Notes: a model not told the origin generated them from the sequence alone. 64,000 bases of DNA from Armatimonadota bacterium (GCA_046292385.1 JBKBRF010000034.1:14179-78178), one strand, 5' to 3'; counted from the stretch's first letter, positions 41,084-64,000 are shown. Numbers and translations are program-made.

Positions 41084-41096
41084 GGATACGAGAACG

Positions 41097-42422: not shown

Positions 42423-42533
42423 GGTCCAGGGTCCAGGGTCTAGGTCTGTGCGGGGCAGACTGCGCCATTCGCAGACCGCTATTCCTGCGTAATGCAGTCT
42501 TTCATCTTTCTTCTTCCCTCTACTTGACTTGTC

Positions 42534-43595
42534 ATGACTGAACTGAAGCGCCTTCACCGGCATATGCTGCCGACGGCGGTCCTGGGCGTCGACATGCGGA
42601 GCGACGGCAGCACGCTCTACGCCGCCTGCATGGACGGCGTCTACGAGGTGAACGCCGAGTCCGGCGCGGCGCGGCAGCTCTACACGCACGACCGCTACGC
42701 GTCCCGGGTGGCGCTGCTGGAGAAAGCGGGCACACTGGTCTCCGCGGGGTACGACGGCGCGCTGAAGTGGTACGACCTGACGGGCGGCAAGCTGGTCCGC
42801 ACGGTGAAGGCGCACAACTTCTGGTCGTGGAGCCTCGCCGTCTCGCCGGACGGCAAGTACGTGGCGTCGGTCACCGGACAGTATCTCTCCGGCGGCCCCA
42901 AGTACGAGCCGGCCCCGGAGACGGAGCCCTCCGTCAAGGTCTTCGACGCCGCCACCGGCGCGCTGGTCGGGAGCTTCTCGCACGTGCCGTCGGTGCAGTC
43001 GGTCGCCTTCAGCCCGGACAGCCGGTATGTCGCCGCGGGCAACCTGATGGGCGAGGTGCGGGTCTGGGACGTGCCGGCCGGCAAGCAGGTGGCGAGCTGG
43101 ACCACCGACTCGTTCACGAGCTGGGGCATCATCAAGAGCCACTGCTACCTGGGCGGCATCTTCGGGATGGCCTTCGCTCCCGGTGGGGAGGAGCTGATCG
43201 TTTGCGGCATGGGCCCCATGCGGGATCCGATGGCAGGCAACGGCAAGCAGCTCTGGCAGCGGTTCGCCTGGAAGGAGTCCCCCGCCAAGATGGTAGCGGA
43301 GACGAAGGCGAGCGAGAGCGGGGAAGGTCTGATGGAAGCGCTGGCAGTCCACCCCGGCGGCTCCCACTTCGTGATGTCGGGCCGCCTCCGCGGTGGAAGC
43401 TGGAACACCGGCCTCTTCAGCCTAGCGGACGGTGCCCTCCAGCACTCCCTCAAGACCGACACCCGCGTCACCGGCGCCGCCTTTACCGCAGACGGCAGCC
43501 GCCTGGCGCTTGGCGGCACCCGCAGCCAGCCGATGCCCAAAGACGGGAAGATCGAGCCGTTCGGGCACGTGGATCTGTTCGAGGTGACGCTCTAG
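42534..43595 (+). CDS. WD40-repeat beta-propeller protein
   Basis: SAGYDG.LKWYD, LAVSPDG, VAFSPD..VRVWD. Confidence 0.85.
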   Translation: MTELKRLHRHMLPTAVLGVDMRSDGSTLYAACMDGVYEVNAESGAARQLYTHDRYASRVALLEKAGTLVSAGYDGALKWYDLTGGKLVRTVKAHNFWSWSLAVSPDGKYVASVTGQYLSGGPKYEPAPETEPSVKVFDAATGALVGSFSHVPSVQSVAFSPDSRYVAAGNLMGEVRVWDVPAGKQVASWTTDSFTSWGIIKSHCYLGGIFGMAFAPGGEELIVCGMGPMRDPMAGNGKQLWQRFAWKESPAKMVAETKASESGEGLMEALAVHPGGSHFVMSGRLRGGSWNTGLFSLADGALQHSLKTDTRVTGAAFTADGSRLALGGTRSQPMPKDGKIEPFGHVDLFEVTL

Positions 43596-49452: not shown

Positions 49453-51228
49453 CTACTTCGCCTTTTCGTAGTGGGCCGCCAGCTCTGCCTTGTGCTCCGG
49501 ATTCACCGCTACGTGATAGCGGCGGCTGCCCGCTTCGGTTTCCGGCCGCCAGGTGATCCGCAGCGAGTCGTAGAGCCGCCCGAGCGAGTACTCCAGCACC
49601 TTGCGGTCCCAGTCGCGAGACGGGCGCTTCACATCAAAGGTCACGCCCATGGTGTGGAACTCCGGGTCTCGCGGCACGTCCGGCGGCAGCGGCGCCAGCG
49701 GATACCGGGCCCGGAACTTCTCCCGGTAGCTCTCCGTCTCGACCATCGAGAGCAGCACCAGTGGCTCGCGGCCGCCGTGCTGGCGGTAGATCGCGGCGAG
49801 CCGCAGGAGGGCGCCCATCGCTTCCGGGCGGAGCCCCTTGTGGAGCTTCTCGCTGGAGGGCTGGAGCGCGGCCAGGTTCTGCGTGCGCACGCCCAGCTTG
49901 ACCGCTGAGGCAGGCAGCGGCACCAGCGTCCCGGAGCGATACCCCTCCGCCAGCTCCCGGTCGCTGGAGAACGAGAGCGGGCTCGGATCGGCGTACCAGA
50001 CCGCGTCCGAAGAGAGGCCCGGCTGCAGTGCCTGCCACTCCTTCTTGAACGCCTCCGGGTCTTCCCGGTAGAGGTTCAGCGCCCGCTCCGCCATCAGCAC
50101 CTTCCACCAGTAGTAGCGGTGGTCGTCGCTGCGGCCGAAGAGGTAGCCGAACGCCCCGGGGGTGCCGGTGGGGCTGACCCGCCGGTAGAGCTCCGCGTAG
50201 GGAAGCCAGCGGCCGTCCCCGCCGAGAGTGTAGCCGCGGCTGGCGAGCTGCGTGCGGGAGCCGAGACCCTCCGCGAAGAGACTTATGGTGCGCGACGCGC
50301 CGCCCTCGCCGCCGTGGTAGGCCTGGAGCGCCCAGTCGACCCCGCCGTAGCGGCGGGTGAGCCGGACCAGGTACTTCGTCTGCGCGCGGATCGCCTTGAA
50401 CGGATCGAACCGCTCGTCGGCCTGGCGCCGCTGCTGGATGAGCCGCTCCCGCTGGCTGCGCCGGTAGTCGAGCCACTGGTCGCGAGTCCACACGTCGGTC
50501 TTCGGAGCGGGAGCGACGCCCGGCATCTCGGAAGCGTCGGTGCCGGCGCTGGCGAGCTGGAGCTGCGACTGCTTCTTTGCCAGCCGGTCCGCATACGGAC
50601 GCAGCGCCACCGGCACCGGGCGGGTCCAGCTCTCGGCCTGCGCCTGCAGCCAATCGATCTCGCGCTCCACCCCGGCGATCTCCCGGGAGAGGCGGTTGGA
50701 AGCGCCGAGGTCGACCTTCAGCCCGCACGAGCGGCCGGTGCTGGCGAGGAACTGCGCCACGCCGATCGCGTCGGCCACGGAGCGGGCGTTCGGATCGCCG
50801 CCCGACTCGAGGAGGAGGTCCGCTTCCTGCTTGCCCTTGAAGTAGTCGCGGTACTCCGCCAGCGACATGCCGGACTGCTTCGCCAGCGCCTTCATGTCGG
50901 CCTGGACCTCCGGCATCTCGTGCGCCTTGTCCAGCAGCGGGCGGATGGTGGTGGCGACGCGGCTCACCATCTCGAGCGAGTTCAACCGCCCCATGATCCG
51001 CTTCTTCTGGGCCAGCACCACGCTCTCCGCGTCCGCTTCCGGGACGGCGGTGAGGGCGGGGTCGCTGCTGGGCGACTTCGTCTCCGTGCGGGTGGTCGCC
51101 TCGGCGAGCTGCCCGGACGGAGACGGTCCGCTCCCCAGGAGCCGTCCGGCGCCGAATCCGGCGACTGCCAGACCCGCCGCGCCGGCGGCGCACATCCAGC
51201 CACGCGACCCTTGCAGGAACGCTTGCAT
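49453..51228 (-). CDS. Membrane-anchored lytic transglycosylase (SLT)-like protein with a probable DUF5715-like C-terminal domain
   Basis: N-terminal TM; LLESGGDPNARS...A.GVAQF (catalytic ES), ALQAYHGG; C-terminal L.SMV..H..G.TFDV..E...YH. Confidence 0.65.
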   Translation of the reverse strand: MQAFLQGSRGWMCAAGAAGLAVAGFGAGRLLGSGPSPSGQLAEATTRTETKSPSSDPALTAVPEADAESVVLAQKKRIMGRLNSLEMVSRVATTIRPLLDKAHEMPEVQADMKALAKQSGMSLAEYRDYFKGKQEADLLLESGGDPNARSVADAIGVAQFLASTGRSCGLKVDLGASNRLSREIAGVEREIDWLQAQAESWTRPVPVALRPYADRLAKKQSQLQLASAGTDASEMPGVAPAPKTDVWTRDQWLDYRRSQRERLIQQRRQADERFDPFKAIRAQTKYLVRLTRRYGGVDWALQAYHGGEGGASRTISLFAEGLGSRTQLASRGYTLGGDGRWLPYAELYRRVSPTGTPGAFGYLFGRSDDHRYYWWKVLMAERALNLYREDPEAFKKEWQALQPGLSSDAVWYADPSPLSFSSDRELAEGYRSGTLVPLPASAVKLGVRTQNLAALQPSSEKLHKGLRPEAMGALLRLAAIYRQHGGREPLVLLSMVETESYREKFRARYPLAPLPPDVPRDPEFHTMGVTFDVKRPSRDWDRKVLEYSLGRLYDSLRITWRPETEAGSRRYHVAVNPEHKAELAAHYEKAK

Positions 51229-51580
51229 ACCTCGGCCTCCTTCGGGGGAATTGCTTCGGGGGAGCTCGCCCTCAGTATCCTGGATGCTCGGAGGGCTGTC
51301 AACGAAGGGGGACCCGCCTCCCCGTGCCGTACCCGGGCGCCAGCTCGCCCGTTCTACAAGCGTCTCGGCGGCGCGCTAGAGTGCCTTTCCCGCCCTCGCT
51401 GCAGGTTGGCAGGTTACAGGTGCCGAGCCCCGGCCCCGGTGGTCTCAACCTGCAACCTGCTAACTTGCCAACCTGCAACGAGGGCTTACGGCATTTGAAG
51501 CGGCGGTTACAGGTGCCGGGCGGCTCCGAGACGAACGTGGTTCTGTCCCGTTACCGGTATCGAAGGGAAGAGCAGGCAGG

Positions 51581-53152
51581 ATGGCGTCGCGCTGGGCAAT
51601 CGACCTCGGGACTACGAACACCGTTGTGGCAATGGAAGAGTTCGGGAGCGTCCGCGCGGTGACGCTTCCCGGGGTGGGGCGAACCCTTCCGGTGGAGCAA
51701 TCGCCGCTCATCCCTTCGGCCGTGCACATTACCGATAGCTACGAGCGGTGGCTCTACTTCTTCCGCCGTCGCCGCCGGAACGTGAGCATCGGACAGCAGG
51801 CGCTGAGCCGCAACTTCGACGGCCGCTCGCCCGCCTTCGCGCAGAGCTTCAAGCCGGTCCTCGCCACCCAGCCGCACAAGCCGCTGCTGCGGGTGGGGGA
51901 CCGGGAGGAGCTGACCGCGCGGGACGTGACCTTCCATTTCCTGCGGGAGCTCCTGGCCCGGCTCCGGGAGCAGCACGGGGCGCATCCGCAGGACCTGACG
52001 ATCCCGGCGCCGGTCGGCTACTTCGACCACTACCGCGCGGAGCTGAGCTCCATGGTCAAGCGGCTCGGCGTGAAGCGCTTCCGCTCGCTCGACGAGCCGG
52101 TGGCGGCGGCGCTCGGCTACGGCGTGAACGTGGCGCGGGAAGAGTCGCTGCTGGTGGTCGACTTCGGCGGCGGCACGCTCAACCTGGCGGTGGTGCGGCT
52201 GGGACCGCGCACGGCGGAGACCGGCAAGGCCGATGTGGTGGCCAAGCACATGGTGAGCGTGGGCGGCAACGACGTGGACCACTGGCTGGTGGAGCACCTG
52301 GTCGCCTCGGAGCTGCGGGAGATCCCGGAGTGGTACAAGGACATCCACTGGGAAGCGATGTTCGTGAAGGAGCGGGTGAGCCAGCAGGGAAGCGCGGAGT
52401 TCCGCTGGGGCGGGATCCAGCGCCACGTGACGCGCGACGACCTGGTGGGAGTGCTCGACCGCCACGGCCTCTACGAGCAGCTCCGCATCGCGCTGCGCGA
52501 CATTCAGCGGCAGCTCGCCGAGGACCCGATGATCCCGGTGAACGGGGTGGACGAGGTGCTGATGGTCGGCGGCTCCACGCTGCTGCCGGAGGTGCCGGCG
52601 GTGGTGGACGAGGCGTTCCCCCAGGCAATCGTGCGGCACGACCCGGACTTCGTATTCCAGTCGGTCGCCCTCGGCGCGGCACGGTACGCGGGCGGCACCG
52701 CGCTGGAGGACTTCGTCTACCACGACTACGCCATCGCCGTGCAGAACGAGAAAACGCGGAGCCAGGAGTACGAGCTGCTGGTGCCCCGCCGCACCCGCTA
52801 TCCCACCACCTCCGACTTCGCGGTCCGCTACTACGCGGACTACCCCGGCATGAACGAGGTCCGGTTCAGCGTCTGCGAGGTCGGCCGCCTGGGGCAGTCG
52901 CCGGTCTCCTGGGAGCAGCGTCCCAACGCCAACCGGTACTGGTGCCCGCAGGACGAGCGGGAGCGCGCGATGGTGGTGCTGCTGAACCCGGCGGACGAGG
53001 CGGTGCCGCTCCGGCCGCCGGGACAGGGCGCCTCGGCCCGGCTGCGGGTGACCTACAACATCAACGCCGACCGCTGGCTCTGCGTGACCGTGGAAGACCT
53101 GGTGCGCAAGCAGGTGCTCAAGGAGAACGAGCCGGTAGTCCGCCTGAGGTGA
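51581..53152 (+). CDS. Atypical Hsp70-family protein (NBD plus SBD-beta-like domain, no helical lid)
   Basis: AIDLGTTNT, DEPVAAALGYG, VVDFGGGT, GGNDVD, VGGSTLLP; LVPRRTRYP..RVTYNINADRWL.V.V.D. Confidence 0.88.
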   Translation: MASRWAIDLGTTNTVVAMEEFGSVRAVTLPGVGRTLPVEQSPLIPSAVHITDSYERWLYFFRRRRRNVSIGQQALSRNFDGRSPAFAQSFKPVLATQPHKPLLRVGDREELTARDVTFHFLRELLARLREQHGAHPQDLTIPAPVGYFDHYRAELSSMVKRLGVKRFRSLDEPVAAALGYGVNVAREESLLVVDFGGGTLNLAVVRLGPRTAETGKADVVAKHMVSVGGNDVDHWLVEHLVASELREIPEWYKDIHWEAMFVKERVSQQGSAEFRWGGIQRHVTRDDLVGVLDRHGLYEQLRIALRDIQRQLAEDPMIPVNGVDEVLMVGGSTLLPEVPAVVDEAFPQAIVRHDPDFVFQSVALGAARYAGGTALEDFVYHDYAIAVQNEKTRSQEYELLVPRRTRYPTTSDFAVRYYADYPGMNEVRFSVCEVGRLGQSPVSWEQRPNANRYWCPQDERERAMVVLLNPADEAVPLRPPGQGASARLRVTYNINADRWLCVTVEDLVRKQVLKENEPVVRLR

Positions 53153-53156
53153 CGCG

Positions 53157-54167
53157 ATGGAGAGTGATCGTGCGGTACTCGGGAGATTCCTCTCGGACCT
53201 CAGCCACCCCAATCAGAGGCGTCGAGAGGAAGCGATAGCCGGAATCGCCCGCCTCGGCGAGGAAGCTATTCCCGGAGTGTGCCACGTCGCACTGAAGGGA
53301 ACCACGGTCGCCCAGCAAGCGGCGATGAAGGCGCTCACCGCGCTCGCGTCTCCGCAGGCGGTAGAAAGGCTGGCGCGGGTACCCGGCTTCGAGTGGACGG
53401 ACGAGCTCAACACCCGAATCCGGATGTTGGCCGCCTGCGGACCTCCCGCGGCTCCGGAGCTGGTCCGCGCCCTCTCCGTGGATGACAGCGCCACGTGGAT
53501 TGCCTTGATGGCGCTCCGGCGAATGGGAGTGGATGCGGTGCCGGCGCTGTGCGACGGCCTGGTTTCCCGCTTCTCGCGTACTGTCACCTCCAGCGCCAGA
53601 CTGCTGGGCGAGATCGGGAATGCGCTCGCGGTGGAGCCGCTCTCCCGTGCGATGCTCCGGACGGAGCCGGAGGTACGCCGGGAAGCGGTGCTCGCCCTCG
53701 GGAAGCTGGGCTGCGATGGGGCGCGTGAGACACTCCGGCAGGCGGTCGCCGCGCCGGATCTCGGTCCCCTCGCCGCGCTGGCGCTGGTGGAGCTGGGGCA
53801 TGGGAGCGACGAGCTGGTCCCGCCCCTGGTCCGCGTGCTGCAGGATCACGACTCGCGAGTCCGCGTCCGCGCGGCCCGAGCCCTGGAACGGCTGGCGGAA
53901 GCGGAGGCGCCGCTCTCGCTGCGAAGCGCGCTCGGCCCGCTGCGGCGGCTTTCCTGGTCGTGGCTAATCGACGGCGACGAGCGCGCGCTCTGCCGGCACG
54001 TCGCGGAACGGATCCGCGCGGCTACCGTTGGAATATCGGATCTGCCGATCCCGCGCCGGGCCGGCGACACCGATTCGCTGCCCGTTCCCGCGGAGCCGGC
54101 GGAAACTCGCGAAGAGTCGCTGCCTCGTCCGAGCCGCGAGTATGAGCGTGGATCCCAGGGCGCATAA
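53157..54167 (+). CDS. HEAT-repeat protein 1 of 8
   Basis: PEVRREAVLALGKLG, DSRVRVRAARAL; tail DLPIP-SLPVP-SLPRP. Confidence 0.85.
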   Translation: MESDRAVLGRFLSDLSHPNQRRREEAIAGIARLGEEAIPGVCHVALKGTTVAQQAAMKALTALASPQAVERLARVPGFEWTDELNTRIRMLAACGPPAAPELVRALSVDDSATWIALMALRRMGVDAVPALCDGLVSRFSRTVTSSARLLGEIGNALAVEPLSRAMLRTEPEVRREAVLALGKLGCDGARETLRQAVAAPDLGPLAALALVELGHGSDELVPPLVRVLQDHDSRVRVRAARALERLAEAEAPLSLRSALGPLRRLSWSWLIDGDERALCRHVAERIRAATVGISDLPIPRRAGDTDSLPVPAEPAETREESLPRPSREYERGSQGA

Positions 54168-54193
54168 CCGGAGCGGAAGGGTCCCACAGGAAC

Positions 54194-55651
54194 GTGATGC
54201 AGAGCGATCCCGTCCAGAGCCAGGTCGAGCACCAGATCGCGCGGCTGGACGCGCCGCACCCCGGCGCGCGGCGGGAGGCGTTCGACGCGCTCGCCCGCGC
54301 TGGCTTCGCCGCGGTTCCTCCGCTCTGCACGGTGCTGAAAGAGGGGAGCGTGCGGGCACGCATCGCCGCGGCGCACCTGCTCGCGGTGATCCGGGAACCG
54401 GAGAGCGTGCCGGCGGTGATGGAGGCGGTCTGGGACCCCCACCTCGCCGTACGCCGCGCCGCCATCGCTGCGCTGGGGACGATGCAGGCCGCGGAAGCGG
54501 TCACGGTGCTGATCGAGGTTGCCCGCTTGCCCGCGGCGGCCTGCCGCGAGGACGTGCTCCGAGCCCTGGCAAAGATCCACGACCCGCAAACCGTACCCGC
54601 GCTTTGCCGCTTTCTGACGGAGGGCGGTTCGAGAGCGGTGATCGTCGAGGCGCTGGCGGCCAGCGGTGATCCCGCCGCCGTTCCCGCGCTCGCCAAGCTG
54701 CTGGGCTCCGCTCCGTCCTCGGCGGCAGACATTATCTCTGCCCTGGCTCGCATCCCGCACCCGGATGCCGCAGCCGCGCTCCTACAAGGCCTCGACCGTG
54801 CCGGCGGGACACTCCGGCTGCGGATCGAGGCCTTGCAGGGCCTCGGTGCGGCGGCAGTACCGGCGCTAATCGACGCCCTGGGCGGTCCGGCGGATGCGGC
54901 GAATCTCTCGGAGAACCTTCTGAGCTCCATGGGGGATTCAGTCACTCCGGCACTCAGCGAAGCGCTGTCTGCCCCGGCCGACTACCGGAGCCATGCAGCC
55001 TGGAACCGCCGGTTCCGGGTGATACGCCTGCTCGCATCCTGCGGGTCTCCGGCGGTTCGCCCCCTGGTAGGAACCCTCCGGGACCCCGCACCGCAGGTCC
55101 GCAAGGCGGCGGCGCTGGCGCTCGGGCTGATCGGGCAACCGAAGGCAATTCCTTCCCTGTGCCCGCTGCTGCAGAGCCAGGCCCCGGGGATCCGCGAGGC
55201 CGCAGCAGTGGCGCTCGTGGAGTGTGGAGCCGCGGAGGAGGAGTTGATCGAGCACCTGGTGCGCGGACTGGAATTGACGGTCCCCAATGATCTCCTTCCA
55301 CGAGCCGCGGCAGCACTCACCCGGATCGCGAGGGACGCGCCCTGCTCGCGGCTCAGGCTCGCCCTGCCGGCGCTCCGACGCATCGCCCGCAACTTCTTCC
55401 GCCCGACCGCTGAGCGGTCGGCCGCTCGGGAGGCGGTTTCCGCCATCGAGGCGGCGACGGCCGGTCTCTCCGACCTTCCGTTACCTTCCAGCGGAGCGGG
55501 TGGGGAGGCAGCCCTGCCGCTCCCGGCGCGGGCAGCCTCGGCCACCGCTCCGGAGTCGCTGCCGCGCCCGCAGCCGGCTCCCGAGACTGCGGGGGCTGCC
55601 GGCGACTCTCCCGGCGACGACTTCAACCTGACACGATCTACGTATGGCTAG
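54194..55651 (+). CDS. HEAT-repeat protein 2 of 8
   Basis: AVRRAAIAALG, PQVRKAAALALG.IG; tail DLPLP-ALPLP-SLPRP. Confidence 0.85.
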   Translation: MMQSDPVQSQVEHQIARLDAPHPGARREAFDALARAGFAAVPPLCTVLKEGSVRARIAAAHLLAVIREPESVPAVMEAVWDPHLAVRRAAIAALGTMQAAEAVTVLIEVARLPAAACREDVLRALAKIHDPQTVPALCRFLTEGGSRAVIVEALAASGDPAAVPALAKLLGSAPSSAADIISALARIPHPDAAAALLQGLDRAGGTLRLRIEALQGLGAAAVPALIDALGGPADAANLSENLLSSMGDSVTPALSEALSAPADYRSHAAWNRRFRVIRLLASCGSPAVRPLVGTLRDPAPQVRKAAALALGLIGQPKAIPSLCPLLQSQAPGIREAAAVALVECGAAEEELIEHLVRGLELTVPNDLLPRAAAALTRIARDAPCSRLRLALPALRRIARNFFRPTAERSAAREAVSAIEAATAGLSDLPLPSSGAGGEAALPLPARAASATAPESLPRPQPAPETAGAAGDSPGDDFNLTRSTYG

Positions 55652-55711
55652 TCCTTCAAACGTTCATATGCGCCAGCTCTCCGCTTCCTCGCCGGGCGCG
55701 TCCACACCGAA

Positions 55712-57127
55712 ATGCTAAGCTCGACGCCCGGTGAACTGGAACGCGCTGCCGCCCGGCTGGGGTTCTGGTATCCGCCGGAGCGCCGACGGGCGGCGGCCAC
55801 CCTGGAGCGAGCAGGCGCCAGTGCCGTGCCGGTGCTGGCGCGGGTGCTCCGGCGCGGCTCCGGCCCCGCCCGGTCCGCGGCGGTGCGGCTGCTCTCCGCC
55901 CACTACCTGGCCGAGGTGGAAGGGCTGCTGATCGAGGCGCTAAGAGACCGCGCGCCGACCGTGCGCCGGACGGCGATGCGCGCACTCGGCCTGCGGAGGT
56001 CCACGGCAGCGCTCCCCGCGCTGCTGGGGATGGTGAAGTCCGGCCCGGCGAGCTGCCGGGAAGCCGCCATCCGTGCCCTGGGGCGGATTGGAGACCCTCG
56101 GGCGGCACCGGTGCTGCTCGAGATCCTGGCGCGGGACTCGCTGCGGACTACCGTGGTGGAGTCGCTCGGAATGATCGGAGAGCCGATCGCCGTCCCCGCG
56201 CTGGTGGCGATCCTGGGCGAGCAGGGCCCCTCCGAGCTGCAGCACGTCATCCTGGCACTCGGGCGCATCCGGCATCCCGACTCAGCGGCGGCGCTGGTCG
56301 ACTACGCCACCCGGCAGCGTTGGACCGCCCCTGCGATCCGCCAGCCGCTGCTCCGCCTCGGCCAATGCGCCGTGCCGGCCCTGATCGACGCGCTCGACCG
56401 GGACCGCACGACGGTCGTCTTCGCGTCCGAGCTGCTCCAGGAGTTGGACGAGGAGGCGGTGCCGGGGCTCCTCGAGGCGCTCGATCGCCCTGCGGCGACG
56501 GAGGGCGGGAGCTGGCGGCGCCGCGCCCACGCCGCCCAGGTGCTCGGCGCGATCCGCAGCCCCGCGTCGACCCCGGCGCTCATCCGGACTCTCGCTGATC
56601 CGACAGTGCAGGTCCGCTTCGAGGCGGCCCTCGCGCTGGGGGAGTTGGGCGATCCCGCGGCCTGTCCGGCGCTGCGGACGCTGCTGCCGGATGAGGCGCC
56701 GTCGGTGCAGGCAGCGGCAGCGGTCGCCCTGATCCTCTGTGAAGGCTACGAGGAGGCGCTGATCCCCCTGGTCGTCGGCGGCCTCGACCGCAGCCACCCG
56801 GAGTTCCTGCGGCGGCGCGCCCTCCGGGCGCTGCTGCAATTCACCCGAGCGGCGCCGACGCCCGCGCTCCGAGCGGCGATCCCGCGCCTGCGCGCCGCCC
56901 TGCATCCGATGGGCGCTGCGGCCGGCGAGCGAGACACTGTCCGCAGGGTGCTGAGCGAGATCGAGGCCGCTACCGGCAACCTGGCTGCCCTGCCGCTGCC
57001 GGCGGCGGGCCTCGAGGCGCAGGCGGACCAGCTCCCGCGCCCGGCCGCCGCGCCGGACGGCGCGCCGCACTCGCTCCCCAGGCCGGCCCCGGCGGCCGAT
57101 CACGAGCCGGAGTTCCTGGTCCCATGA
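55712..57127 (+). CDS. HEAT-repeat protein 3 of 8
   Basis: CREAAIRALGRIGDPRA, VRFEAALALGELGDP; tail ALPLP-QLPRP-SLPRP. Confidence 0.85.
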   Translation: MLSSTPGELERAAARLGFWYPPERRRAAATLERAGASAVPVLARVLRRGSGPARSAAVRLLSAHYLAEVEGLLIEALRDRAPTVRRTAMRALGLRRSTAALPALLGMVKSGPASCREAAIRALGRIGDPRAAPVLLEILARDSLRTTVVESLGMIGEPIAVPALVAILGEQGPSELQHVILALGRIRHPDSAAALVDYATRQRWTAPAIRQPLLRLGQCAVPALIDALDRDRTTVVFASELLQELDEEAVPGLLEALDRPAATEGGSWRRRAHAAQVLGAIRSPASTPALIRTLADPTVQVRFEAALALGELGDPAACPALRTLLPDEAPSVQAAAAVALILCEGYEEALIPLVVGGLDRSHPEFLRRRALRALLQFTRAAPTPALRAAIPRLRAALHPMGAAAGERDTVRRVLSEIEAATGNLAALPLPAAGLEAQADQLPRPAAAPDGAPHSLPRPAPAADHEPEFLVP

Positions 57128-58353
57128 GCCATCTCGCTATCCATCCACACCTGGCGGCGCTGATCGAAGCGAACGTGGCGCAGCTCGAGAGCGAGGACGC
57201 GGGGGAGCGCGAGGAGGCGGTACGGCGCCTGGTGAGCTGCGGCGACGCCGCGGTGCGCGACCTGTGCCGGGTACTCGAGAGCGGCTCCGATGCCGTGCGG
57301 ATTGCGGCCTGCCGGGCGCTGCGGCAGCTCCGCTCCCGCCAGGCGACCCCGCCGCTCTGCCGCGCCGCGACCAGTCCCGCACCGGAGGTCCGGCGGGCGG
57401 CCCTGGAGGCGCTCGCCGTGGCGGGGGAGGAGCCGGATCTCTCCGGAGAGGAGGGCGAGCGCGCCTTCGAAGCGGCGAAGCTGCTGGCGCGGATGGAGGA
57501 TCGGCCGGCGCTGCCGATCCTGCTGGGGCTGCTCCACCCGGGCGGCGGCGAGGCATTCGCGTCAGAGGCCCCCACGGTGGATCCGGAGGCGCTGCGGCAG
57601 CTGGGGGCCCGGCAGCCGGGCTTCCTCGCGCGGCTCTGCGTCGACGAGACCTTCGCCTGCGAGGCGCTGGACGAGGCGGTGGTCGCCCTGGGCGACTCAG
57701 GCGAGCGCCCGCTGCGGATGGTGCTGAAGCGGCCCGACCGCTACGATGCGGCCGCGCGGCGGCGAGCGGTGCGGGTGCTCGCGCGGATGCCGGACAACGC
57801 GATCCCGCTGGCGCGGGCGCTCTCCGACCCGGAGGCTAGCGTTCGCGAGGAGGCGGCGCTGGCCCTCGGCTCCTTTACAGAAGAGTCGGCGAGGCAGGCA
57901 CTCCTCGCCGTGCTGCAGAGCGAGCGAGAGGAGGAGAGCGTCCGAGCGTGCGCGGCCATCGCGCTCCTGGAGCATGGGGAAGTGCTCCCCGCGGCTCTCC
58001 AGCGGGTAGCACGCGTCCTCGGGCGCGACCCGCGGCTGAACGAGCGCGCCGTGCGAGCGCTGGTCCGCGTGGCGCAGTCCGGCGCGCTCGTCGACCTGAA
58101 CCCGGCCATCCGGAGACTGAGCCAGCTCTGCCGCGCCTGGACGCTCCCCGCGGAGGAAAAGGCGCTCTACCAGGAGGCACTGCGAGAGATCCAGGCGGCA
58201 GGCGACCGCCTGACCGACCTGCCGCTGCCGTCCCAGCGGCCGCCCGTCGACGCCAGCGCGCTCCCCCGGCCAGCGATGGAGAGCCGGACCTCCGCCGAGC
58301 AGCTGCCGAGACCGTCCGCCGGACCGGCCGGCACCGGGGAGTGGGAGGGCTAA
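57124..58353 (+). CDS. HEAT-repeat protein 4 of 8
   Basis: PEVRRAALEAL, DPEASVREEAALALG; tail DLPLP-ALPRP-QLPRP. Confidence 0.85.
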   Translation: MSHLAIHPHLAALIEANVAQLESEDAGEREEAVRRLVSCGDAAVRDLCRVLESGSDAVRIAACRALRQLRSRQATPPLCRAATSPAPEVRRAALEALAVAGEEPDLSGEEGERAFEAAKLLARMEDRPALPILLGLLHPGGGEAFASEAPTVDPEALRQLGARQPGFLARLCVDETFACEALDEAVVALGDSGERPLRMVLKRPDRYDAAARRRAVRVLARMPDNAIPLARALSDPEASVREEAALALGSFTEESARQALLAVLQSEREEESVRACAAIALLEHGEVLPAALQRVARVLGRDPRLNERAVRALVRVAQSGALVDLNPAIRRLSQLCRAWTLPAEEKALYQEALREIQAAGDRLTDLPLPSQRPPVDASALPRPAMESRTSAEQLPRPSAGPAGTGEWEG

Positions 58354-58357
58354 CTCG

Positions 58358-59746
58358 ATGGATCCCTGGAGCCACCAAGAGCCCTCGATCGCCCGGCTGC
58401 TTCGGGAGTTGTCGGCGGACGATCCAGCCCGGCGCAAGGCGGCGGTAGAACGGCTGGTGAGGTGCGGGGAGGCCGCGGTGGAGGACCTCTGCGCGGTCCT
58501 GGAAAGCGGCACGGAGCCCGCGAAGCTCGCCGCCTGCGACGCGCTGGAGCGGCTGCGGTCTAGAAAGTCCGCCCCCTGGCTCGGCGAGGCGGTGAGATCC
58601 GGGTCGCCGGCCGTCAGCCGGGCCGCGTTCCGCGCCCTGGCGTCGCTCCAGCCACGCGACGGCGCGGAGGAGCTTCGGGCGCTGGCCGAGAGCCACTGTG
58701 AGCTCGCGATCGAGGCTGCCGAGCTCCTGGCCTGCCGCGAGGACCCGGAGGCGCTCTCAATCCTGCGCGTGCGGCTGATGCGGATCAATGAGCCGCAGCC
58801 GCGCGTCGTCGCCGCACTCGGAGGGCTCGGCGACAGGAGGGCGCTCCCGCTGATTCAGCGCATCCTGGATGAGGGCTCGTCGGAGATGCAGATCGCCGCC
58901 GCAAACGCGCTGGCCCAGTTCGGCGATGTCCGCACCGCGCCCACTCTCTGGCTGCCGCCCGTGGAGCCGCTCACCTCCGAAGTGCGCGAAGCTCGTCTCG
59001 AGGCGCTGATATTGCTCGGAATGCGGAACCCCGAGGCGTTTATCCGGCTCTGGTCGCTCGCCGCGGGAGATCTGGAGCTCGCGGACGAGGCGCTGGCGCG
59101 GATCGGAGCTCCCGCCCTGAATCGGCTCGAAACTCTGCTGCGTACCCCGAATCCGGCGCTGCAGTGCAGAACTGCCCGCGTTTTCGGGATGAGCAGCCCC
59201 AATCCGAGCGCTCTCCTACAGGCCCTGAACGATCCGGACGATGACGTGAAGGTGGAGGTGGCGCTGGCGCTGGCGAGATACCGCGAAGAACGCGTCACGC
59301 GAGCTCTCTTTCGCGTGCTCGAGGGGGACGAGCCGGGCAGGGTCAAAGCGAGTGCAGCCATCGTGCTGGCGGAGCAGGGCCAGTTGGACGCGGAAGTATT
59401 CACGGCGGCGGCGGACGGCCTCACGCAGGAGCGGCGCATTCGGGAGCGGGCGGCGCTCGCCATCGCCCGGATCGCGGAATCGGGAGCGCGGGTCGATCTG
59501 CGGCCGGCGGTCCGGAAGCTCAGGAGCCTGACCCGGCCGTGGACACTCCTCCCCGCCGAGGAAAAGGCAGTCTACCGGGGCGCGCTGCGGCGGATCGAGG
59601 CGGCAGGCGACCGCCTGACCGACCTGCCGCTACCGTCCCAGCGGCCGCCCGTCGACGCCAGCGCGCTCCCCCGGCCGGCCGGATCGGCGCCGCTCTCGCC
59701 GGAACTGCTGCCGCGGCCGGCGGGCGACCCGGAGGGAGACCGGTAG
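58358..59746 (+). CDS. HEAT-repeat protein 5 of 8
   Basis: ALGGLGDRRALP, DPDDDVKVEVALAL; tail DLPLP-ALPRP-LLPRP. Confidence 0.85.
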   Translation: MDPWSHQEPSIARLLRELSADDPARRKAAVERLVRCGEAAVEDLCAVLESGTEPAKLAACDALERLRSRKSAPWLGEAVRSGSPAVSRAAFRALASLQPRDGAEELRALAESHCELAIEAAELLACREDPEALSILRVRLMRINEPQPRVVAALGGLGDRRALPLIQRILDEGSSEMQIAAANALAQFGDVRTAPTLWLPPVEPLTSEVREARLEALILLGMRNPEAFIRLWSLAAGDLELADEALARIGAPALNRLETLLRTPNPALQCRTARVFGMSSPNPSALLQALNDPDDDVKVEVALALARYREERVTRALFRVLEGDEPGRVKASAAIVLAEQGQLDAEVFTAAADGLTQERRIRERAALAIARIAESGARVDLRPAVRKLRSLTRPWTLLPAEEKAVYRGALRRIEAAGDRLTDLPLPSQRPPVDASALPRPAGSAPLSPELLPRPAGDPEGDR

Positions 59747-59749
59747 GAC

Positions 59750-60811
59750 ATGGACCCGGTTGGCGACGGAAGAAAGAGATCGCTCGGAGGCGATCCGGAG
59801 ACAGGTCAGCCGCCCGACGCGCGGGCACGCTCCGCGATAGGGGAGCCGGCAGGGCGCGGCCGTGCCGCCATCCCCGCGCTCTGTGAGCAGCTCGCGAAGG
59901 GCCAACCGACGGAGCAGGCCGCGGCGGCACGCGCGCTCGGGCGGCTCCGGGATCTGCGCGCCGTCGCCCCGCTGCTGCACGCGCCGTCCGGCAGCGCCGG
60001 TGCGCCGCTTCGGGAGGCCTGCATCGAGGCGCTCGCGCGGATCGGGGCTCCAGCGGTCCCGCTGCTGGCCCGGGCGCTCGCCTTCGACGCTGAAGAGGTC
60101 GCCTCCTCCGCCCTCGTACGGATCGGAAGCCCGGCCGCCGGCGCTCTGCTCGACGCGCTCTACTCCTCCGATCGCGCGGTCCGGACGAGTGCGGTGCGGA
60201 TCCTCGCCGCCATCGGCACTGAGGAGGCGGGCGCGGTGCTCGCGCGGGTGCTCGGCGACCCGGAGCGGAAGCGGCGAATCGACGTCGCCACCCGGATTGA
60301 CCTCGCGCTCGCGCTCGGCACCGTCATCCCGGGGTCCGGCTCCCAGGCGCTCACGCAGGTGATGCGGGATGCGGACGAACACCCGCTCGTGCGGGCGTGT
60401 GCCGCCATCGCTCTCTGCGAACGGGGCGATTCGGAGGCGGAACGGATCCAGTTAGCAGTGGGAGGGCTCCACGGCAATCACCGCATCCGGAAACGCGCCG
60501 CAGCCGTGCTGGCGTGCTGCGCGCGGGAGCGCCCGTGGCGGGAGCTCGACCTCGCGGTCCCCCTGGTGCGCCGGCTAGCGCGGTCGCGCGAGCTGCCGCA
60601 AGCGGAGACCGCCGCCTACCGGGAGACGCTCGTCCTCGTGGAGACGGCACTGGAGAGAATGGCGACCCTGCCGGTACCGGCGGGGGTTTCGACGGAGCTG
60701 CGCAGCCTGCCGCAGCCCGCCGAAGCCCCTTTCGCCGCGGCAGGCCTACCCCGGCCCGCTATCACGTCCGCAGCTCATCCGGCGGAGGCCGATCCCCATG
60801 GCGACCTCTGA
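59750..60811 (+). CDS. HEAT-repeat protein 6 of 8 (shorter, eroded N-terminus)
   Basis: AARALGRLRDLRAV.PL, AVRTSAVRILAAIG; tail TLPVP-SLPQP-GLPRP. Confidence 0.8.
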   Translation: MDPVGDGRKRSLGGDPETGQPPDARARSAIGEPAGRGRAAIPALCEQLAKGQPTEQAAAARALGRLRDLRAVAPLLHAPSGSAGAPLREACIEALARIGAPAVPLLARALAFDAEEVASSALVRIGSPAAGALLDALYSSDRAVRTSAVRILAAIGTEEAGAVLARVLGDPERKRRIDVATRIDLALALGTVIPGSGSQALTQVMRDADEHPLVRACAAIALCERGDSEAERIQLAVGGLHGNHRIRKRAAAVLACCARERPWRELDLAVPLVRRLARSRELPQAETAAYRETLVLVETALERMATLPVPAGVSTELRSLPQPAEAPFAAAGLPRPAITSAAHPAEADPHGDL

Positions 60812-62210
60812 CGACGCAGCCGATCCGGGCGCGCCCATCGACGAGGCGATCGATCAGCTCAACGCGTTCGATCCGCAGCTCCGGAGCGCCGCAATCGAGC
60901 GGCTGGTCCGGTCCGGCCACGCGGCGGTCCCGGCGCTCTGCCGCGCGCTGGTAACGGCGCCGGATGTCGCGCGCGTCGCCATCTGCCAGGTGCTCGGCAC
61001 GCTGCAGGCGCCCGAGGCGGCGACCGCGCTCTGTGAGGCGGTAACCGAAGGCTCCTCGGAAGTACGACGGGCGGCACTGGCAGCCCTCGCGGCGCTCCCT
61101 CCGGAACGGGTGGCTCACCCGCTGCGGGAGCTGGCCGGGAGTGGGGGAGAGGCCGGGCTCGCGGCCGCGGAGCTGCTGGCGGAGCTGCACGACTTCGGCG
61201 CGCTGCCCATCCTGCAGCAGATGCTGCTGTTTTCCGGCTGGCAGGTACACCGGGTGCGGGTCATCCGCGCCCTCGGACGGCTGGGCGATCCGCGCGCGTT
61301 CTCCACCCTCTGTGAGCTCCTCGAGGGGCCGTCCGCGGACGAAGCGCTGGCGGCGATCCGCGCGCTCCAGGATCTGGGAGATCCGCGCGCCGTCGAGCCG
61401 CTCTGGCTGCTGGGCGGACCGAATGAACGCGATAGTCTCCGGCAAGCCCGGATCGAGGCGATGGCCAGCTTCGGCAGCAGCGCCGTACCGGGGCTGGTCG
61501 GCCTGCTGCAAAACGACGACGGGAAGGCGGAAGCGGCGCTCGTCCGGATCGGCGAGGCGGCGATCGCGCCGCTCATCGACGCGCTGCCGCACCTCGGCGC
61601 CGCCGCCTGCACCCGGGCCATCTGGGTCCTTGGGGGGCTGAAGGCGGCCGAAGCCGGCCCGGCGCTCGCGTTCGCGCTCGGGGACTCGATCGCGGCGGTG
61701 CGGGAAGGCGCGGCACTCGCGCTCGCGGAGATCGAGACTCCCTGCGGCACGGAGCAGCTGCGGCGGATCGTAGAAAACGAGGCGGAGAGCGACCCGGTGC
61801 GCTCCGCCGCCGCCTTCGCGCTGGCCCGCCGCGGGGTCGAGCACCCGGCTCTGGAGGCGGCACTCACCCGCGGGCTGCACCTCCAGGACGCCGAGAGCCG
61901 GCAGCGAGCAGCCGAGGGACTACTGCAGCTGGCGAACACGCGGCCGAACGTCGCGCTGCGCCTCTGCATCAAGCGGCTGCGCAGTCTCTCCCGCGCCTGG
62001 ACGCTGCCGGAGGAGGAGAAGCGGACTTACCGCACGGCACTCCGGGGCATCGAGCAGGCGACCCGGCACCTTGCGAGCCTGCCGCTGCCGGCCGAGCGTG
62101 GTGGGGGAGACCAGTCTAGCCTGCCCCGGCCCGGCGGACGACCCGCGCTGGACCCGGAGCGGCTCCCGCGGCCCGGACCGGCTGCGACAGACGGAGAAGC
62201 GACCGAATGA
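60798..62210 (+). CDS. HEAT-repeat protein 7 of 8
   Basis: EVRRAALAAL, ALGRLGDPRA, AVREGAALAL; tail SLPLP-SLPRP-RLPRP. Confidence 0.85.
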   Translation: MATSDDAADPGAPIDEAIDQLNAFDPQLRSAAIERLVRSGHAAVPALCRALVTAPDVARVAICQVLGTLQAPEAATALCEAVTEGSSEVRRAALAALAALPPERVAHPLRELAGSGGEAGLAAAELLAELHDFGALPILQQMLLFSGWQVHRVRVIRALGRLGDPRAFSTLCELLEGPSADEALAAIRALQDLGDPRAVEPLWLLGGPNERDSLRQARIEAMASFGSSAVPGLVGLLQNDDGKAEAALVRIGEAAIAPLIDALPHLGAAACTRAIWVLGGLKAAEAGPALAFALGDSIAAVREGAALALAEIETPCGTEQLRRIVENEAESDPVRSAAAFALARRGVEHPALEAALTRGLHLQDAESRQRAAEGLLQLANTRPNVALRLCIKRLRSLSRAWTLPEEEKRTYRTALRGIEQATRHLASLPLPAERGGGDQSSLPRPGGRPALDPERLPRPGPAATDGEATE

Positions 62211-63631
62211 AAAAGAGTAGGAAGGAGCCGTCCCTGGAGGAGCGGATCGAGGAGAGCACCGGCCACCTGCGGATCTGGGACGCGCGGATCCGGGACCGGG
62301 CGATTGCGGAGCTGATTCGCTGCGGCGAGGCGGCGGTCCCCGCTCTCTGCGGCGTGCTGGAGACCGAGTTCGAAGTTGCGCGCATCGCGGCGTGCCGGGC
62401 GCTGCAGACGCTCCGAGCACCGCAGTCGGTCCGCTGGCTCTGCCGCACGGCCCTCGACCCCTCGCAAGACGTGGCCCTGGCCGCGGTGGCGGCCCTGCGC
62501 GCGCTCCGCTCACCGGATTCAGTTTATACCCTCTGCGAGCTGGCGCGCCGGGGAGGGGAGACGGGCCTGCTCGCGGTCGAGGCGCTCGGGAGCATCGGCG
62601 ATCCTTCGGCGACGCCGGCCGTCCTGCAGATGATGCGCTCGCTGCTCCTCGGCGGGAGGGAGCGGGTCATCCGGGTGCTGGGGCAGCTTCGCGACCCGCG
62701 CGCGACGCTGCCGTTGTGTGAAATGCTGGAGCAGGGTTCACACGCAGAGCGGGTGGCGGCGGCGGAGGCGCTGGGGGAGATCGGAGACGCGCGCGCCGTC
62801 GCCCCGCTCTGCCAGTTCCTGGCCTACCCCGTTCCGACGGAAATCCGACACGCGCGCCTGCGGGCCGTGATCAAGATCGGCGCCCTCGGCGCGGAGCCGC
62901 TGGCCCGCCTCCTCGCGTACGACGACGGCACCGCCGACCTCGCGGAGCAAGCGCTGAAGGAGCTGGGGCCGGCCGCGGCGGGCGCACTGGCGGAGATGCT
63001 CGGCGCCCCCAGCTCCGAGGGGCGCCGGCGCGCCGCGGCCTTGCTCGGCGCGGCGGCAGTGCCCGACTACGCTCCGGACCTGGTCCGGGCTCTTTCCGAT
63101 CCGAATGCAGCAGTCCGGCAGGAGGCGGCACTCGCCCTCGGCCCGCTGGCCCTCCCACCCGTCAGGGCGGCGCTGCGCTCGGCGCACGCGCAGGAGAAGG
63201 AAGCGGAGCAGGTACGCGCATGCGCGGGCGTTTCCTTAGCTGAGCACGGCGACGGGAGCGCGGAGGTAATCGCCTCACTCGTGGAGGCGCTGCACCTGGA
63301 GCGGCGGATCCGCGAGCGCGCCGCCCGGGGGCTGGGCCGCCTCGCGGAGACCGAGCCGTCGCTGGCGCTGCGGGGAGCGGTCCGACGCCTGCGCAGCCTC
63401 TCCCGCGCGTGGACCCTGCCGCGCGAAGAGAAGGAGATCTACCGCCGCGCCCTCGCGCAGGTGGAGGCGGCCACCGCGAACCGCCGCGACCTGCCGATCC
63501 CCTCCGAGAGGGGACGCGGGCGCCCGGACGACCTGCCCCGGCCCGCCCAGCCCCCGCAAAACGGCGACGATCTGCCCGTCCCGGCGGAGAGCCGAAAAGC
63601 ACCTGTTGACTCCGGCGGAGGCGTTCAGTAA
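62207..63631 (+). CDS. HEAT-repeat protein 8 of 8
   Basis: RVAAAEALGEIGDARAV, DPNAAVRQEAALALG; tail DLPIP-DLPRP-DLPVP. Confidence 0.85.
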   Translation: MKKSRKEPSLEERIEESTGHLRIWDARIRDRAIAELIRCGEAAVPALCGVLETEFEVARIAACRALQTLRAPQSVRWLCRTALDPSQDVALAAVAALRALRSPDSVYTLCELARRGGETGLLAVEALGSIGDPSATPAVLQMMRSLLLGGRERVIRVLGQLRDPRATLPLCEMLEQGSHAERVAAAEALGEIGDARAVAPLCQFLAYPVPTEIRHARLRAVIKIGALGAEPLARLLAYDDGTADLAEQALKELGPAAAGALAEMLGAPSSEGRRRAAALLGAAAVPDYAPDLVRALSDPNAAVRQEAALALGPLALPPVRAALRSAHAQEKEAEQVRACAGVSLAEHGDGSAEVIASLVEALHLERRIRERAARGLGRLAETEPSLALRGAVRRLRSLSRAWTLPREEKEIYRRALAQVEAATANRRDLPIPSERGRGRPDDLPRPAQPPQNGDDLPVPAESRKAPVDSGGGVQ

Positions 63632-63732
63632 GATACGCGAGCCAGCCGAAACGGACCGCCCGAGCGGCGCTCGAGAGAGCATTGCCCCGCGGTCTGCCGG
63701 AAGAGAGCAGCGAACGAATGTTCGCAAAAGGC

Positions 63733-63761
63733 TTGACTCCAGACGGCCGGTTTGATAAGCT
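63733..63761 (+). promoter_or_regulatory. Sigma70-type promoter P1 (rrn-like)
   Basis: TTGACT-17 bp-TAAGCT with TG extended -10 and an A-tract upstream. Confidence 0.65.
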
Positions 63762-63846
63762 TACAGCACGCTCCCGGGGACAACCCCGAGAGCGCAGCCC
63801 CCGGTCGGAAACGGCCGCCGCGGAAACCGGAGCGAAAAACTCCCGA

Positions 63847-63875
63847 TTGACAGCGGCGCGCGGGACTGGTAAGCT
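63847..63875 (+). promoter_or_regulatory. Sigma70-type promoter P2 (rrn-like)
   Basis: TTGACA-17 bp-TAAGCT with TG extended -10, 114 bp after P1. Confidence 0.7.
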
Positions 63876-64000
63876 GATGGAGCGCTCGGGAATGGCCCGG
63901 ACGGCGGAGACGCCCCGGAGCCAGGACGAGCTTGAGAATTGCAGACCGGCTAGAGAGCCTCCGCGCTGTAGGGAAACCGAGTGGAGCCCGTCCCGTAGAG

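Follow-up and report, generated by a model that had tools for sequence, protein, structure and literature searches.

The subject of this report is a gene array at the end of a 64,000-nt stretch of DNA (hereafter, the window), which corresponds to positions 14179-78178 of contig C34 of the source genome G000 and ends where that contig ends. All coordinates below are positions in the window; G-codes stand for genomes of the phylum, C for contigs, and L for compared loci. On the + strand at 51581-63631, listing and translation of the open reading frames (ORFs) give nine tightly packed genes, namely one for an Hsp70-like ATPase followed by eight for HEAT-repeat paralogues. Here, we argue that the ATPase is, by its predicted structure, a lidless Hsp70, that the HEAT proteins end in a repeated motif with a predicted place in the Hsp70 substrate groove, and that both probably belong to one specialized chaperone machine.

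The layout is as the sequence-only reading (made earlier, from the DNA alone) had described it: nine co-oriented genes whose junctions are, in 5' to 3' order, gaps of 4, 26, and 60 nt, an overlap of 4 nt, gaps of 4 and 3 nt, and overlaps of 14 and 4 nt. Codon-position GC supports seven of the nine as coding, paralogues 1 and 4 falling outside the filter used. The array of eight HEAT genes is complete at its 3' end, since 370 non-coding bases (63632-64000) separate the last gene from the contig end. A scan for terminator-like sites returned four where 3.3 were expected, with none above chance inside the array, and a scan for promoter-like sites returned two where 0.3 were expected, neither of them on the + strand inside the array. 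The first gene and its domains are the following:

51581-53152, + strand: gene of the lidless Hsp70-like ATPase P0001, 523 amino acids (aa), recognized from the ORF, its translation, Pfam HSP70, and an AlphaFold2 (AF2) model.
51581-52693, + strand: predicted nucleotide-binding domain (NBD), residues 1-371, by structural match to DnaK/Hsp70 NBDs and conserved residues.
52694-53149, + strand: linker and predicted beta-sandwich substrate-binding domain (SBD) with no alpha lid, residues 372-523, by the AF2 model of the domain and a DnaK profile alignment.

The eight HEAT genes then follow one another to the end of the array:

53157-54167, + strand: HEAT paralogue 1 (P0002, 336 aa), 4 nt after the Hsp70 stop; HEAT_2 E 2.6e-19, tail module present.
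54194-55651, + strand: HEAT paralogue 2 (P0003, 485 aa); HEAT_2 E 6.1e-35.
55712-57127, + strand: HEAT paralogue 3 (P0004, 471 aa); HEAT_2 E 1.2e-40.
57124-58353, + strand: HEAT paralogue 4 (P0005, 409 aa); HEAT_2 E 1.2e-24.
58358-59746, + strand: HEAT paralogue 5 (P0006, 462 aa); HEAT_2 E 1.8e-30.
59750-60811, + strand: HEAT paralogue 6 (P0007, 353 aa), without the N-terminal cap; HEAT_2 E 9.9e-19.
60798-62210, + strand: HEAT paralogue 7 (P0008, 470 aa), whose C-terminal module was used in the complex prediction; HEAT_2 E 2.9e-39.
62207-63631, + strand: HEAT paralogue 8 (P0009, 474 aa), the last of the array; HEAT_2 E 1e-33.

In P0001, Pfam HSP70 covers residues 7-371 only (E 1.2e-23), and the NCBIfam models of known Hsp70 types score far below their thresholds: 74.2 bits for DnaK (cut-off 648), 112.9 for HscA (620), and 56.8 for PRK11678 (331), HscA thus being the best, though far sub-threshold, match. 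The AF2 model, built on a 111-sequence alignment, has a predicted local distance difference test (pLDDT) score of 93.6 and a predicted template modeling score of 0.84. Its NBD superimposes on solved DnaK/Hsp70 NBDs with Z 36-38 and a root-mean-square deviation (rmsd) of 2.3-2.4 over about 337 aligned residues. Across the 111 family members, D8, G10, K91, E172, D194, G196-T199 (GGGT), and G330-S332 (GGS) are invariant or nearly so, and judged by these conserved catalytic residues P0001 is probably ATPase-competent.

The C-terminal part is all-beta (residues 378-523) and gives an AF2 pLDDT of 91.4 when folded alone. Compared with 48161 chains, this SBD model finds the Hsp70 SBDs 5gjj (Z 9.2, 116 residues aligned, rmsd 2.5), 3n8e (8.7), and 5e84 (8.2), followed by 1dg4 (7.3), 3d2e (6.8), and 5mb9 (6.6), with unrelated chains at 5.8 or below; the top row of the search, above the Hsp70 SBDs, is 6u42_5F, a ciliary microtubule protein, at Z 9.8. 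In a profile search of PDB sequences, the alignment with DnaK takes in the linker and two SBD-beta segments and goes no farther than the expected start of the lid. In P0001 itself the last beta strand is followed at once by the C-terminus (residue 523), and the model has no helix after residue 462. Because the beta-sandwich SBD matches those of Hsp70s and the protein ends before a lid, P0001 is, on the evidence of its model, a lidless member of the Hsp70 superfamily with conserved ATPase residues. A canonical DnaK, HscA, or HscC type was rejected, as the alpha-helical lid is absent and the curated DnaK and HscA cut-offs are not reached.

P0001 belongs to a large family. A profile search returned 1678 representatives at E 1e-30 or better, mostly of 500-570 residues and matching end to end, and in trees this family separates from the genome's two canonical Hsp70s with a support of 100/100. 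The nearest database clusters are named Armatimonadota, and same-phylum genomes group with Chthonomonadaceae in the Hsp70 tree, so that the source genome probably belongs to Armatimonadota. The names that databases give to family members are 'Hsp70 family protein' or, for one cluster, 'molecular chaperone DnaK (HSP70)/HEAT repeat protein'.

The products of genes 2-9 all match Pfam HEAT_2 (E 1e-18 to 1e-40) as well as HEAT_PBS, and the paralogues are 29-34% identical to the first of them. The sequence-only reading had assigned most of them a shared N-terminal cap, which six of the eight do carry, whereas it is truncated in the first and absent from the sixth. The C-terminal module that it claimed for all is present in 8/8. 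Its description of strong divergence in the middle holds in part: pairwise identity is lowest there (0.28-0.35), but the ends are only modestly higher (0.45 for the cap and 0.36-0.42 for the C-terminal block). No transmembrane-like segment was found in the eight paralogues, the maximum 19-residue hydropathy being 0.92-1.68 and always lying within HEAT helices. A protein homologue search with P0008 returned 15 generic 'HEAT repeat protein' matches and no functional name. An identity as phycobilin lyase or NblB was rejected, for the CpcE, CpcF, and NblB models score 38-61 bits against cut-offs of 220-330, and only the repeat type is common to them.

What sets the paralogues apart is their C-terminus. 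Each of the eight has a conserved helix (..IEAAT..L) followed by exactly three LPxP motifs, which are spaced 12-15 residues apart and occur in the tail only:

54042-54131, + strand: triple LPxP tail of paralogue 1, aa 296-325, motifs at 296, 308, and 322.
55475-55570, + strand: triple LPxP tail of paralogue 2, aa 428-459, motifs at 428, 441, and 456.
56990-57085, + strand: triple LPxP tail of paralogue 3, aa 427-458, motifs at 427, 441, and 455.
58219-58314, + strand: triple LPxP tail of paralogue 4, aa 366-397, motifs at 366, 380, and 394.
59624-59719, + strand: triple LPxP tail of paralogue 5, aa 423-454, motifs at 423, 437, and 451.
60668-60757, + strand: triple LPxP tail of paralogue 6, aa 307-336, motifs at 307, 320, and 333.
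62079-62174, + strand: triple LPxP tail of paralogue 7, aa 428-459, motifs at 428, 442, and 456.
63491-63583, + strand: triple LPxP tail of paralogue 8, aa 429-459, motifs at 429, 443, and 456.

The DNA repeat family D4 ends on the first LPxP motif of paralogue 3. The tail regions of paralogues 4 (58144-58274) and 5 (59549-59679) are 90% identical over 131 nt while the proteins are otherwise diverged, which points to either a local gene conversion or a partial duplication in the recent past. Among the 4580 gene-like ORFs of the genome, which were chosen by a filter on GC content at third codon positions made for this analysis, only 20 have a triple LPxP tail, and 18 of these are among the 27 ORFs that match our HEAT model; the tail is thus specific to the HEAT family of the array. 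Among these 27 matches in the source genome are, besides the present array, those on C3, C16, C11, and C28 as well as copies that stand alone elsewhere. Tail-module trees show local expansions within arrays, and with 3/21 branches starred the tree is too poorly resolved to give orthology between arrays of different genomes. The other HEAT-tail arrays of the genome yielded no common neighbor.

The two remaining tail-bearing ORFs are small and have no HEAT-model match (C9:89087-89659, L126, and C41:28353-28895, L127; 191 and 181 aa from stop to stop). In Pfam, one has no match and the other a weak, sub-cut-off match to a zinc ribbon (E 4e-4). They may be other proteins using the same docking tail.

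Is the neighborhood of the Hsp70 and the HEAT genes kept in other genomes? Orthologues of P0001 with 59-71% identity are found in seven genomes of the phylum (G001, G002, G003, G005, G007, G031, and G065). HEAT genes adjoin the Hsp70 in four of the six close-orthologue loci that can be evaluated, the contig of G007 being too short to judge. In G005 (five genes) and in G031 and G065 (two genes), tail-bearing HEAT genes lie 3' of the orthologous Hsp70, and in G001 three of them are convergent to it. Among more distant homologues in the phylum, those of G136 and G078 (44-46% identical) are followed directly by a HEAT gene whose tail holds NLPRPA three times, and those in G005 (on C19) and G036 (on C113) also have a HEAT gene downstream.

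In addition, 80 Hsp70-family loci from named genomes were scanned over flanks of ±8 kb with a HEAT model built in this analysis. In 19 of the 80, a same-strand HEAT ORF comes immediately 3' of the Hsp70 or forms one protein with it, and these 19 belong to three other phyla: Gemmatimonadota (7/7), the Acidobacteriota lineage (7/11, one further locus being cut by the contig end), and Chloroflexota (5/5). As any HEAT match at all within the flanks occurs in only 21 of the 80 loci, 19 of these 21 sit exactly at the Hsp70 3' end. Some Acidobacteriota loci (L055, L058, and L063) have three to five HEAT genes in tandem. Fusion proteins tell the same story: of the 19 scanned family members longer than the usual 500-570 residues, 13 combine an Hsp70-like part with a C-terminal HEAT_2 region and two carry WD40 instead. 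On the careful family tree the HEAT label requires 7 changes, against a mean of 18.4 for shuffled labels (0/500 as low), and it marks at least four separated clades.

Presence and absence agree with this picture. Of 151 genomes of the phylum, 16 contain the tail module and 33 the Hsp70 family (E 1e-60 or better); the family is present in 12 of the 16 tail-bearing genomes versus 21 of the 135 tail-less ones, and the tail module occurs in 8/8 genomes that have an Hsp70 orthologue of at least 59% identity. The sequence-only reading had made its idea depend on Hsp70 orthologues being linked to HEAT genes, and linked they are, in 19/80 loci and 4/6 close orthologues, in 13 fusions, and by co-occurrence over the 151 genomes. 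The three kinds of evidence (fusion, adjacency, and co-occurrence) agree, and on these comparisons of sequence the Hsp70-HEAT link is not chance.

The partner proteins of other lineages differ in ways worth recording. In Chthonomonadales-type and related genomes, the gene after the lidless Hsp70 encodes a TPR protein (L064:9657-11174, L069:9705-10586, L034:16724-17527, and L035:2283-4085), and in three of these four loci the protein also has a Yip1 or DUF4190 membrane domain; in those three, the place of the HEAT partner would be taken by a TPR protein anchored in the membrane. Some Acidobacteriota HEAT partners (L056:9711-11126 and L063:1665-2990) have an N-terminal segment so hydrophobic (19-residue hydropathy 2.1-2.2) as to suggest anchoring in a membrane; the soluble paralogues of the window have no such segment. 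In L086 (2858-7569), from an Armatimonadota metagenome-assembled genome, ClpB, a weak GrpE-like ORF (E 1.8e-4, sub-cut-off), and a distant Hsp70-family member stand together, an order that suggests a classical chaperone context for that sub-clade. Cyanobacterial family members are mostly monocistronic, with occasional WD40 fusions.

The tails of the unfused partners in other phyla are again built of tandem Leu-containing motifs that come after a helix. In Gemmatimonadota, 5/6 tails printed end in three LPR(A/S/G) motifs, and in Acidobacteriota, 8/8 tails printed carry three to four GQLSL-like motifs with a period of about 10. No tandem tail motif was seen in 12/12 fused Hsp70-HEAT proteins, nor in two unfused Chloroflexota partners. 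Kept in separate partners and missing from fused ones, the tail therefore looks like a tether.

Where such a tether would attach was addressed by predicting the complex of P0001 with the 104-residue C-terminal module of paralogue 7, using custom alignments, three runs, and three controls. The complex scores 0.63 (runs 0.63, 0.72, and 0.00) and the best of the three controls 0.00; among 80 solved complexes, 58 come up to the score mark that it passes, as do 2 among 110 mismatched pairs, counts that are rough since custom alignments were used. The pLDDT of the partner is at least 54, and contact agreement between runs is at least 0%. Confident predicted contacts join residues 385-398, 416-430, and 485-490 of the Hsp70 to residues 66-77 of the partner (HLASLPLPAERG, the first LPxP motif) and to residues 24-28. 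These Hsp70 segments fall in stretches aligned with the SBD-beta of DnaK, where the corresponding strands line the peptide groove. The tail is thus predicted to be groove-compatible, while the score does not imply binding itself. Groove positions vary by clade (386 is A here and R in 73/111 family members; 418 is Y here and L in 47/111), and one may speculate that such differences would fit clade-specific motifs. The 'constant docking end' that the sequence-only reading had proposed for the HEAT proteins gains support from this model, which places the first LPxP motif in the Hsp70 substrate groove.

The same model bears on the comparison with eukaryotic exchange factors that had been drawn alongside. 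The HEAT proteins could be nucleotide exchange factors that replace GrpE, like the armadillo-type HspBP1, Fes1, and Sil1: they have an alpha-solenoid fold, the contig has no GrpE gene, and a solenoid gene comes directly after the Hsp70 gene. We regard this as very improbable. The contact predicted for the conserved 104-residue module is on the SBD and not on the NBD, so the comparison finds no support there; about 27 diverged paralogues per one Hsp70 exceed what an exchange factor needs, and in other clades the partner type switches to TPR or WD40.

The absence of J-domain and GrpE genes from the locus, as the sequence-only reading had it, is borne out: contig C34 has no PF00226 J-domain match and no GrpE match, and elsewhere in the genome six J-domain matches above the family cut-off and two GrpE matches lie on other contigs. 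Both canonical Hsp70 genes (on C62 and C4) adjoin a J-domain gene, whereas the lidless Hsp70 adjoins HEAT genes instead. With no J-domain gene at this locus and J genes beside both canonical Hsp70s, the arrangement suggests that the tail, or the helix preceding it, does the targeting that a J-protein would otherwise do; such a protein may also act in trans.

The interpretation we favor, with moderate confidence, is a specialized Hsp70 machine that has no dedicated J-protein and whose HEAT solenoid partners dock by their tails. Domain make-up, linkage and fusions, co-occurrence, and tail architecture are computed features, and tail-groove docking is a predicted one; from these we infer, and only infer, an ATP-driven cycle, an adaptor or client role, variable specificity of the paralogues, and any cellular function. 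The products of the eight downstream genes, and of about 19 more elsewhere in the genome, would be soluble HEAT solenoids with flexible triple-LPxP tails. In its tail, each solenoid would bring along a substrate-like peptide for docking in the Hsp70 groove, and the Hsp70, as it turns over ATP, would bind the solenoids, release them, or remodel them. At a spacing of 14 residues, the three motifs leave too little room for three neighboring Hsp70s; we think it more likely that they raise the probability of rebinding. Two versions of the cycle can be pictured. In one, the diverged HEAT bodies would be adaptors bringing different targets to one Hsp70; in the other, the HEAT proteins would themselves be clients, whose assemblies the Hsp70 takes apart.

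A number of observations speak against so close a tie between the tails and this Hsp70. The pairing is found in several phyla, but it is not universal: no HEAT gene lies in the available 4 kb beside the orthologues of G002 and G003, although both genomes have tail-bearing HEAT genes elsewhere, and the tree's 46 cyanobacterial family members showed no HEAT linkage. An Hsp70-family match at E 1e-60 is missing from 4 of the 16 tail-bearing genomes (G006, G018, G066, and G129). The linkage counts also overstate the case, because related genomes are not independent samples. In the source genome itself, some 19 tail-bearing HEAT genes out of roughly 27 lie at other loci among unrelated neighbors, and the tail could therefore equally be read by canonical DnaK or another protein. 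As to the complex, one of the three runs scored 0.00, no contact is guaranteed to be common to the runs, and the score may reflect remembered likeness because Hsp70-peptide complexes are already solved; the prediction covers only the tail module of a single paralogue.

Two rival explanations build on these points. The first is that the HEAT array is a lineage-specific expansion which happens to lie beside an unrelated orphan Hsp70. HEAT-tail arrays without an Hsp70 at six or more other loci of the genome, together with the bare orthologues of G002 and G003, would be expected under it. It is nevertheless largely refuted, and we give it hardly any credence, given adjacency or fusion in 19/80 loci of three other phyla (with 19 of the 21 HEAT-matching loci exactly at the Hsp70 3' end), the 13 Hsp70-HEAT fusion proteins, the co-occurrence of tail module and Hsp70 family in the 151-genome set, and the clustering of the HEAT label on the family tree.

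The second holds that the tails are read by something other than the lidless Hsp70, such as the housekeeping DnaK, a protease adaptor, or a modifying enzyme, and that adjacency reflects a different functional link. Most tail-bearing HEAT genes do not stand beside the Hsp70, a quarter of the tail-bearing genomes (4/16) lack the family match, two small ORFs outside the HEAT model have the same triple tail, and proline-rich peptides containing LPRP are known DnaK binders. Yet the absence of the tail from fused proteins and the tandem motifs in unfused partners of three phyla fit a tether to the lidless Hsp70; the tail module is present in all eight close-orthologue genomes; and the complex passes with P0001 and falls to 0.00 when an unrelated protein replaces the Hsp70, DnaK being outside the set of controls. 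On this evidence we hold another reader to be quite unlikely, and we return to the tail-docked Hsp70 machine for comparison with described systems.

The nearest described architecture is CnuD of the type III CoCoNuT systems, which likewise combines an Hsp70 NBD/SBD with HEAT-like repeats, either fused or separate (PMC11090510). Here, the combination takes the form of separate adjacent genes at the locus and of fusions in 13 relatives. CnuD differs in that it lies in operons with McrBC-type GTPases, nucleases, and HEPN proteins and has degenerate ATPase motifs (PMC11090510). A Pfam scan of the nine genes and ten flanking ORFs revealed no McrB-like GTPase, McrC/DUF2357, HEPN, or other nuclease. 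The locus is set apart from CnuD by the description of CnuD rather than by direct comparison of sequences.

This likeness is also the starting point for reading the array as a conflict or defense system of the CnuD-like or NTP-dependent repeat-scaffold type, with the Hsp70-like ATPase as a switch and the HEAT paralogues as sensors of invaders. CnuD pairs the same parts, fused or in a separate gene (PMC11090510); HEAT, TPR, and WD40 scaffolds are described as common effector-position domains in NTP-dependent conflict systems (PMC7159879), and members of the present Hsp70 family have, depending on the clade, HEAT, TPR, or WD40 proteins as neighbors or fusion partners. Moreover, the HEAT paralogues are numerous, diverged, and locally expanded, and their bodies give weak PADLOC matches to HEAT-ARM_XIII and WGR_XIII. 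Those matches, however, are to generic HEAT repeats, as are all that PADLOC returned for the HEAT partners, and PADLOC has no match for P0001. Nuclease, protease, McrB/McrC-like GTPase, and toxin domains are all absent by Pfam from the nine genes and ten flanking ORFs, the other HEAT arrays of the genome adjoin unrelated housekeeping genes, and P0001 has conserved ATPase residues in contrast to the degenerate ATPase motifs described for CnuD (PMC11090510). A role in defense is, in our judgment, unlikely.

As for mechanism, one analogue of the tail-docked machine is the pair of HscA (Hsc66) and IscU. The SBD of this specialized bacterial Hsp70 recognizes the LPPVK motif of IscU, thus reading one short Leu-Pro motif of a dedicated partner (PMC3438969). 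HscA has a lid, the J-protein HscB, and one client with one motif, whereas the locus described here has no lid, no adjacent J-protein, a motif tripled in a C-terminal tail, and about 27 solenoid partners. Clathrin offers a second likeness. Its heavy chain is an alpha-solenoid with a flexible C-terminal tail, and ATP-driven disassembly by Hsc70 needs the QLMLT motif in that tail, which the Hsp70 groove would take up (PMC2830701); the Acidobacteriota tails carry GQLSL repeats. The clathrin system differs in being eukaryotic, in needing the J-protein auxilin, and in having a single motif, and we use it as an analogy only, without claiming lattices for the bacterial HEAT proteins.

The third comparison is with the ribosome-associated complex (RAC; PMC7083937), where Ssz1, a non-canonical Hsp70 whose SBD is reduced, pairs stably with Zuo1. 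The model of P0001 aligns over residues 1-521 to PDB entry 6sr6, which bears the title 'RAC core with a pseudo substrate bound to Ssz1 SBD'. That pair is eukaryotic, the partner in it is a J-protein, and Ssz1 is not known to cycle as an ATPase, whereas P0001 has conserved ATPase residues and a HEAT solenoid for a partner.

Finally, the family may overlap with the cd10170-type 'Hsp70 family proteins', a name that also occurs among the database names of P0001 relatives. Pan et al. counted 3,477 cd10170 genes in 5,551 genomes and gave their specific functions as unknown (PMC8265645); the available part of that account, with which we compare by description only, describes no HEAT partner, tail motif, or lidless SBD. 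A review of Hsp70s treats three prokaryotic types, namely DnaK, HscA, and HscC (PMC8215388). Our full-text literature search, which covered the main text of part of the literature, found no description of a free-standing lidless Hsp70 with a HEAT operon or of the tail motifs. The present analysis contributes the Hsp70-HEAT fusions, the spread of the pairing over several phyla, the tandem tail motifs, and the docking prediction; a specialized Hsp70 with a motif-bearing, dedicated partner is of a known kind.

A wider version of the favored reading can be put forward tentatively, and we think it possible rather than probable. It would be a widespread machine free of J-proteins, in which a lidless Hsp70 is loaded through pseudo-substrate tails by interchangeable solenoid adaptors (HEAT proteins here, TPR or WD40 proteins elsewhere), one ATPase serving up to about 27 adaptors or performing a clathrin-like disassembly.

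Thousands of Hsp70-like genes have no assigned role (PMC8265645), and the locus gives one large clade of them, with 1678 representatives, a testable partner and a candidate docking mechanism. If true, the proposal would explain the targeting of an Hsp70 in the absence of a J-domain and the dispensability of the lid, and it would show how the duplication of adaptor genes can diversify one chaperone. The motifs LPxP, LPRA, and GQLSL are short, which makes binding and ATPase assays simple.

Turning to the surroundings of the array, the upstream neighbors, an SLT transglycosylase and MoeA, are divergent from it, and of the ten flanking ORFs scanned, those with a Pfam match are of a housekeeping kind (SLT, MoeA, and permeases). 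The source genome has about 70% GC. The region was also recovered from other samples: the datasets listed for 51400-59400 are 13 of DNA, from four studies, and none of RNA, and contigs of four other metagenome runs cover all 30 bins of the region in pieces of 223-689 nt. Among the pieces that bridge gene junctions, 62170-62665 has 0 differences and 56878-57385 has 10; no piece from these four runs spans several array genes.

The divergent promoter region upstream of the Hsp70 gene contains a near-perfect palindrome of about 90 nt (51393-51484; fold energy -70.4 kcal/mol). It is a dispersed repeat, with at least 40 copies of 79-88% identity on many contigs, and because of this dispersal it looks like a repetitive extragenic palindromic (REP) or miniature inverted-repeat transposable element (MITE)-like element. 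An Rfam scan of 51000-64000 gave only a sub-threshold chance match, of the palindrome to mir-449.

At the other end of the array, a promoter-like site (TTGACT-17-TAAGAT) lies at 63606-63634, and by eye two further TTGAC(T/A)...TAAGCT pairs can be made out in 63632-64000. This 3' end region would fit the upstream region of a ribosomal RNA operon that broke the assembly.

Farther upstream, at 39242-43595, the window has a PSCyt2/PSD1 (DUF1549/DUF1553) gene, a DUF1501 gene, and a gene for a WD40 beta-propeller. The PSCyt2/PSD1 and DUF1501 families are typical of Planctomycetota-like genomes, whereas the Hsp70 relatives found here point to Armatimonadota instead.

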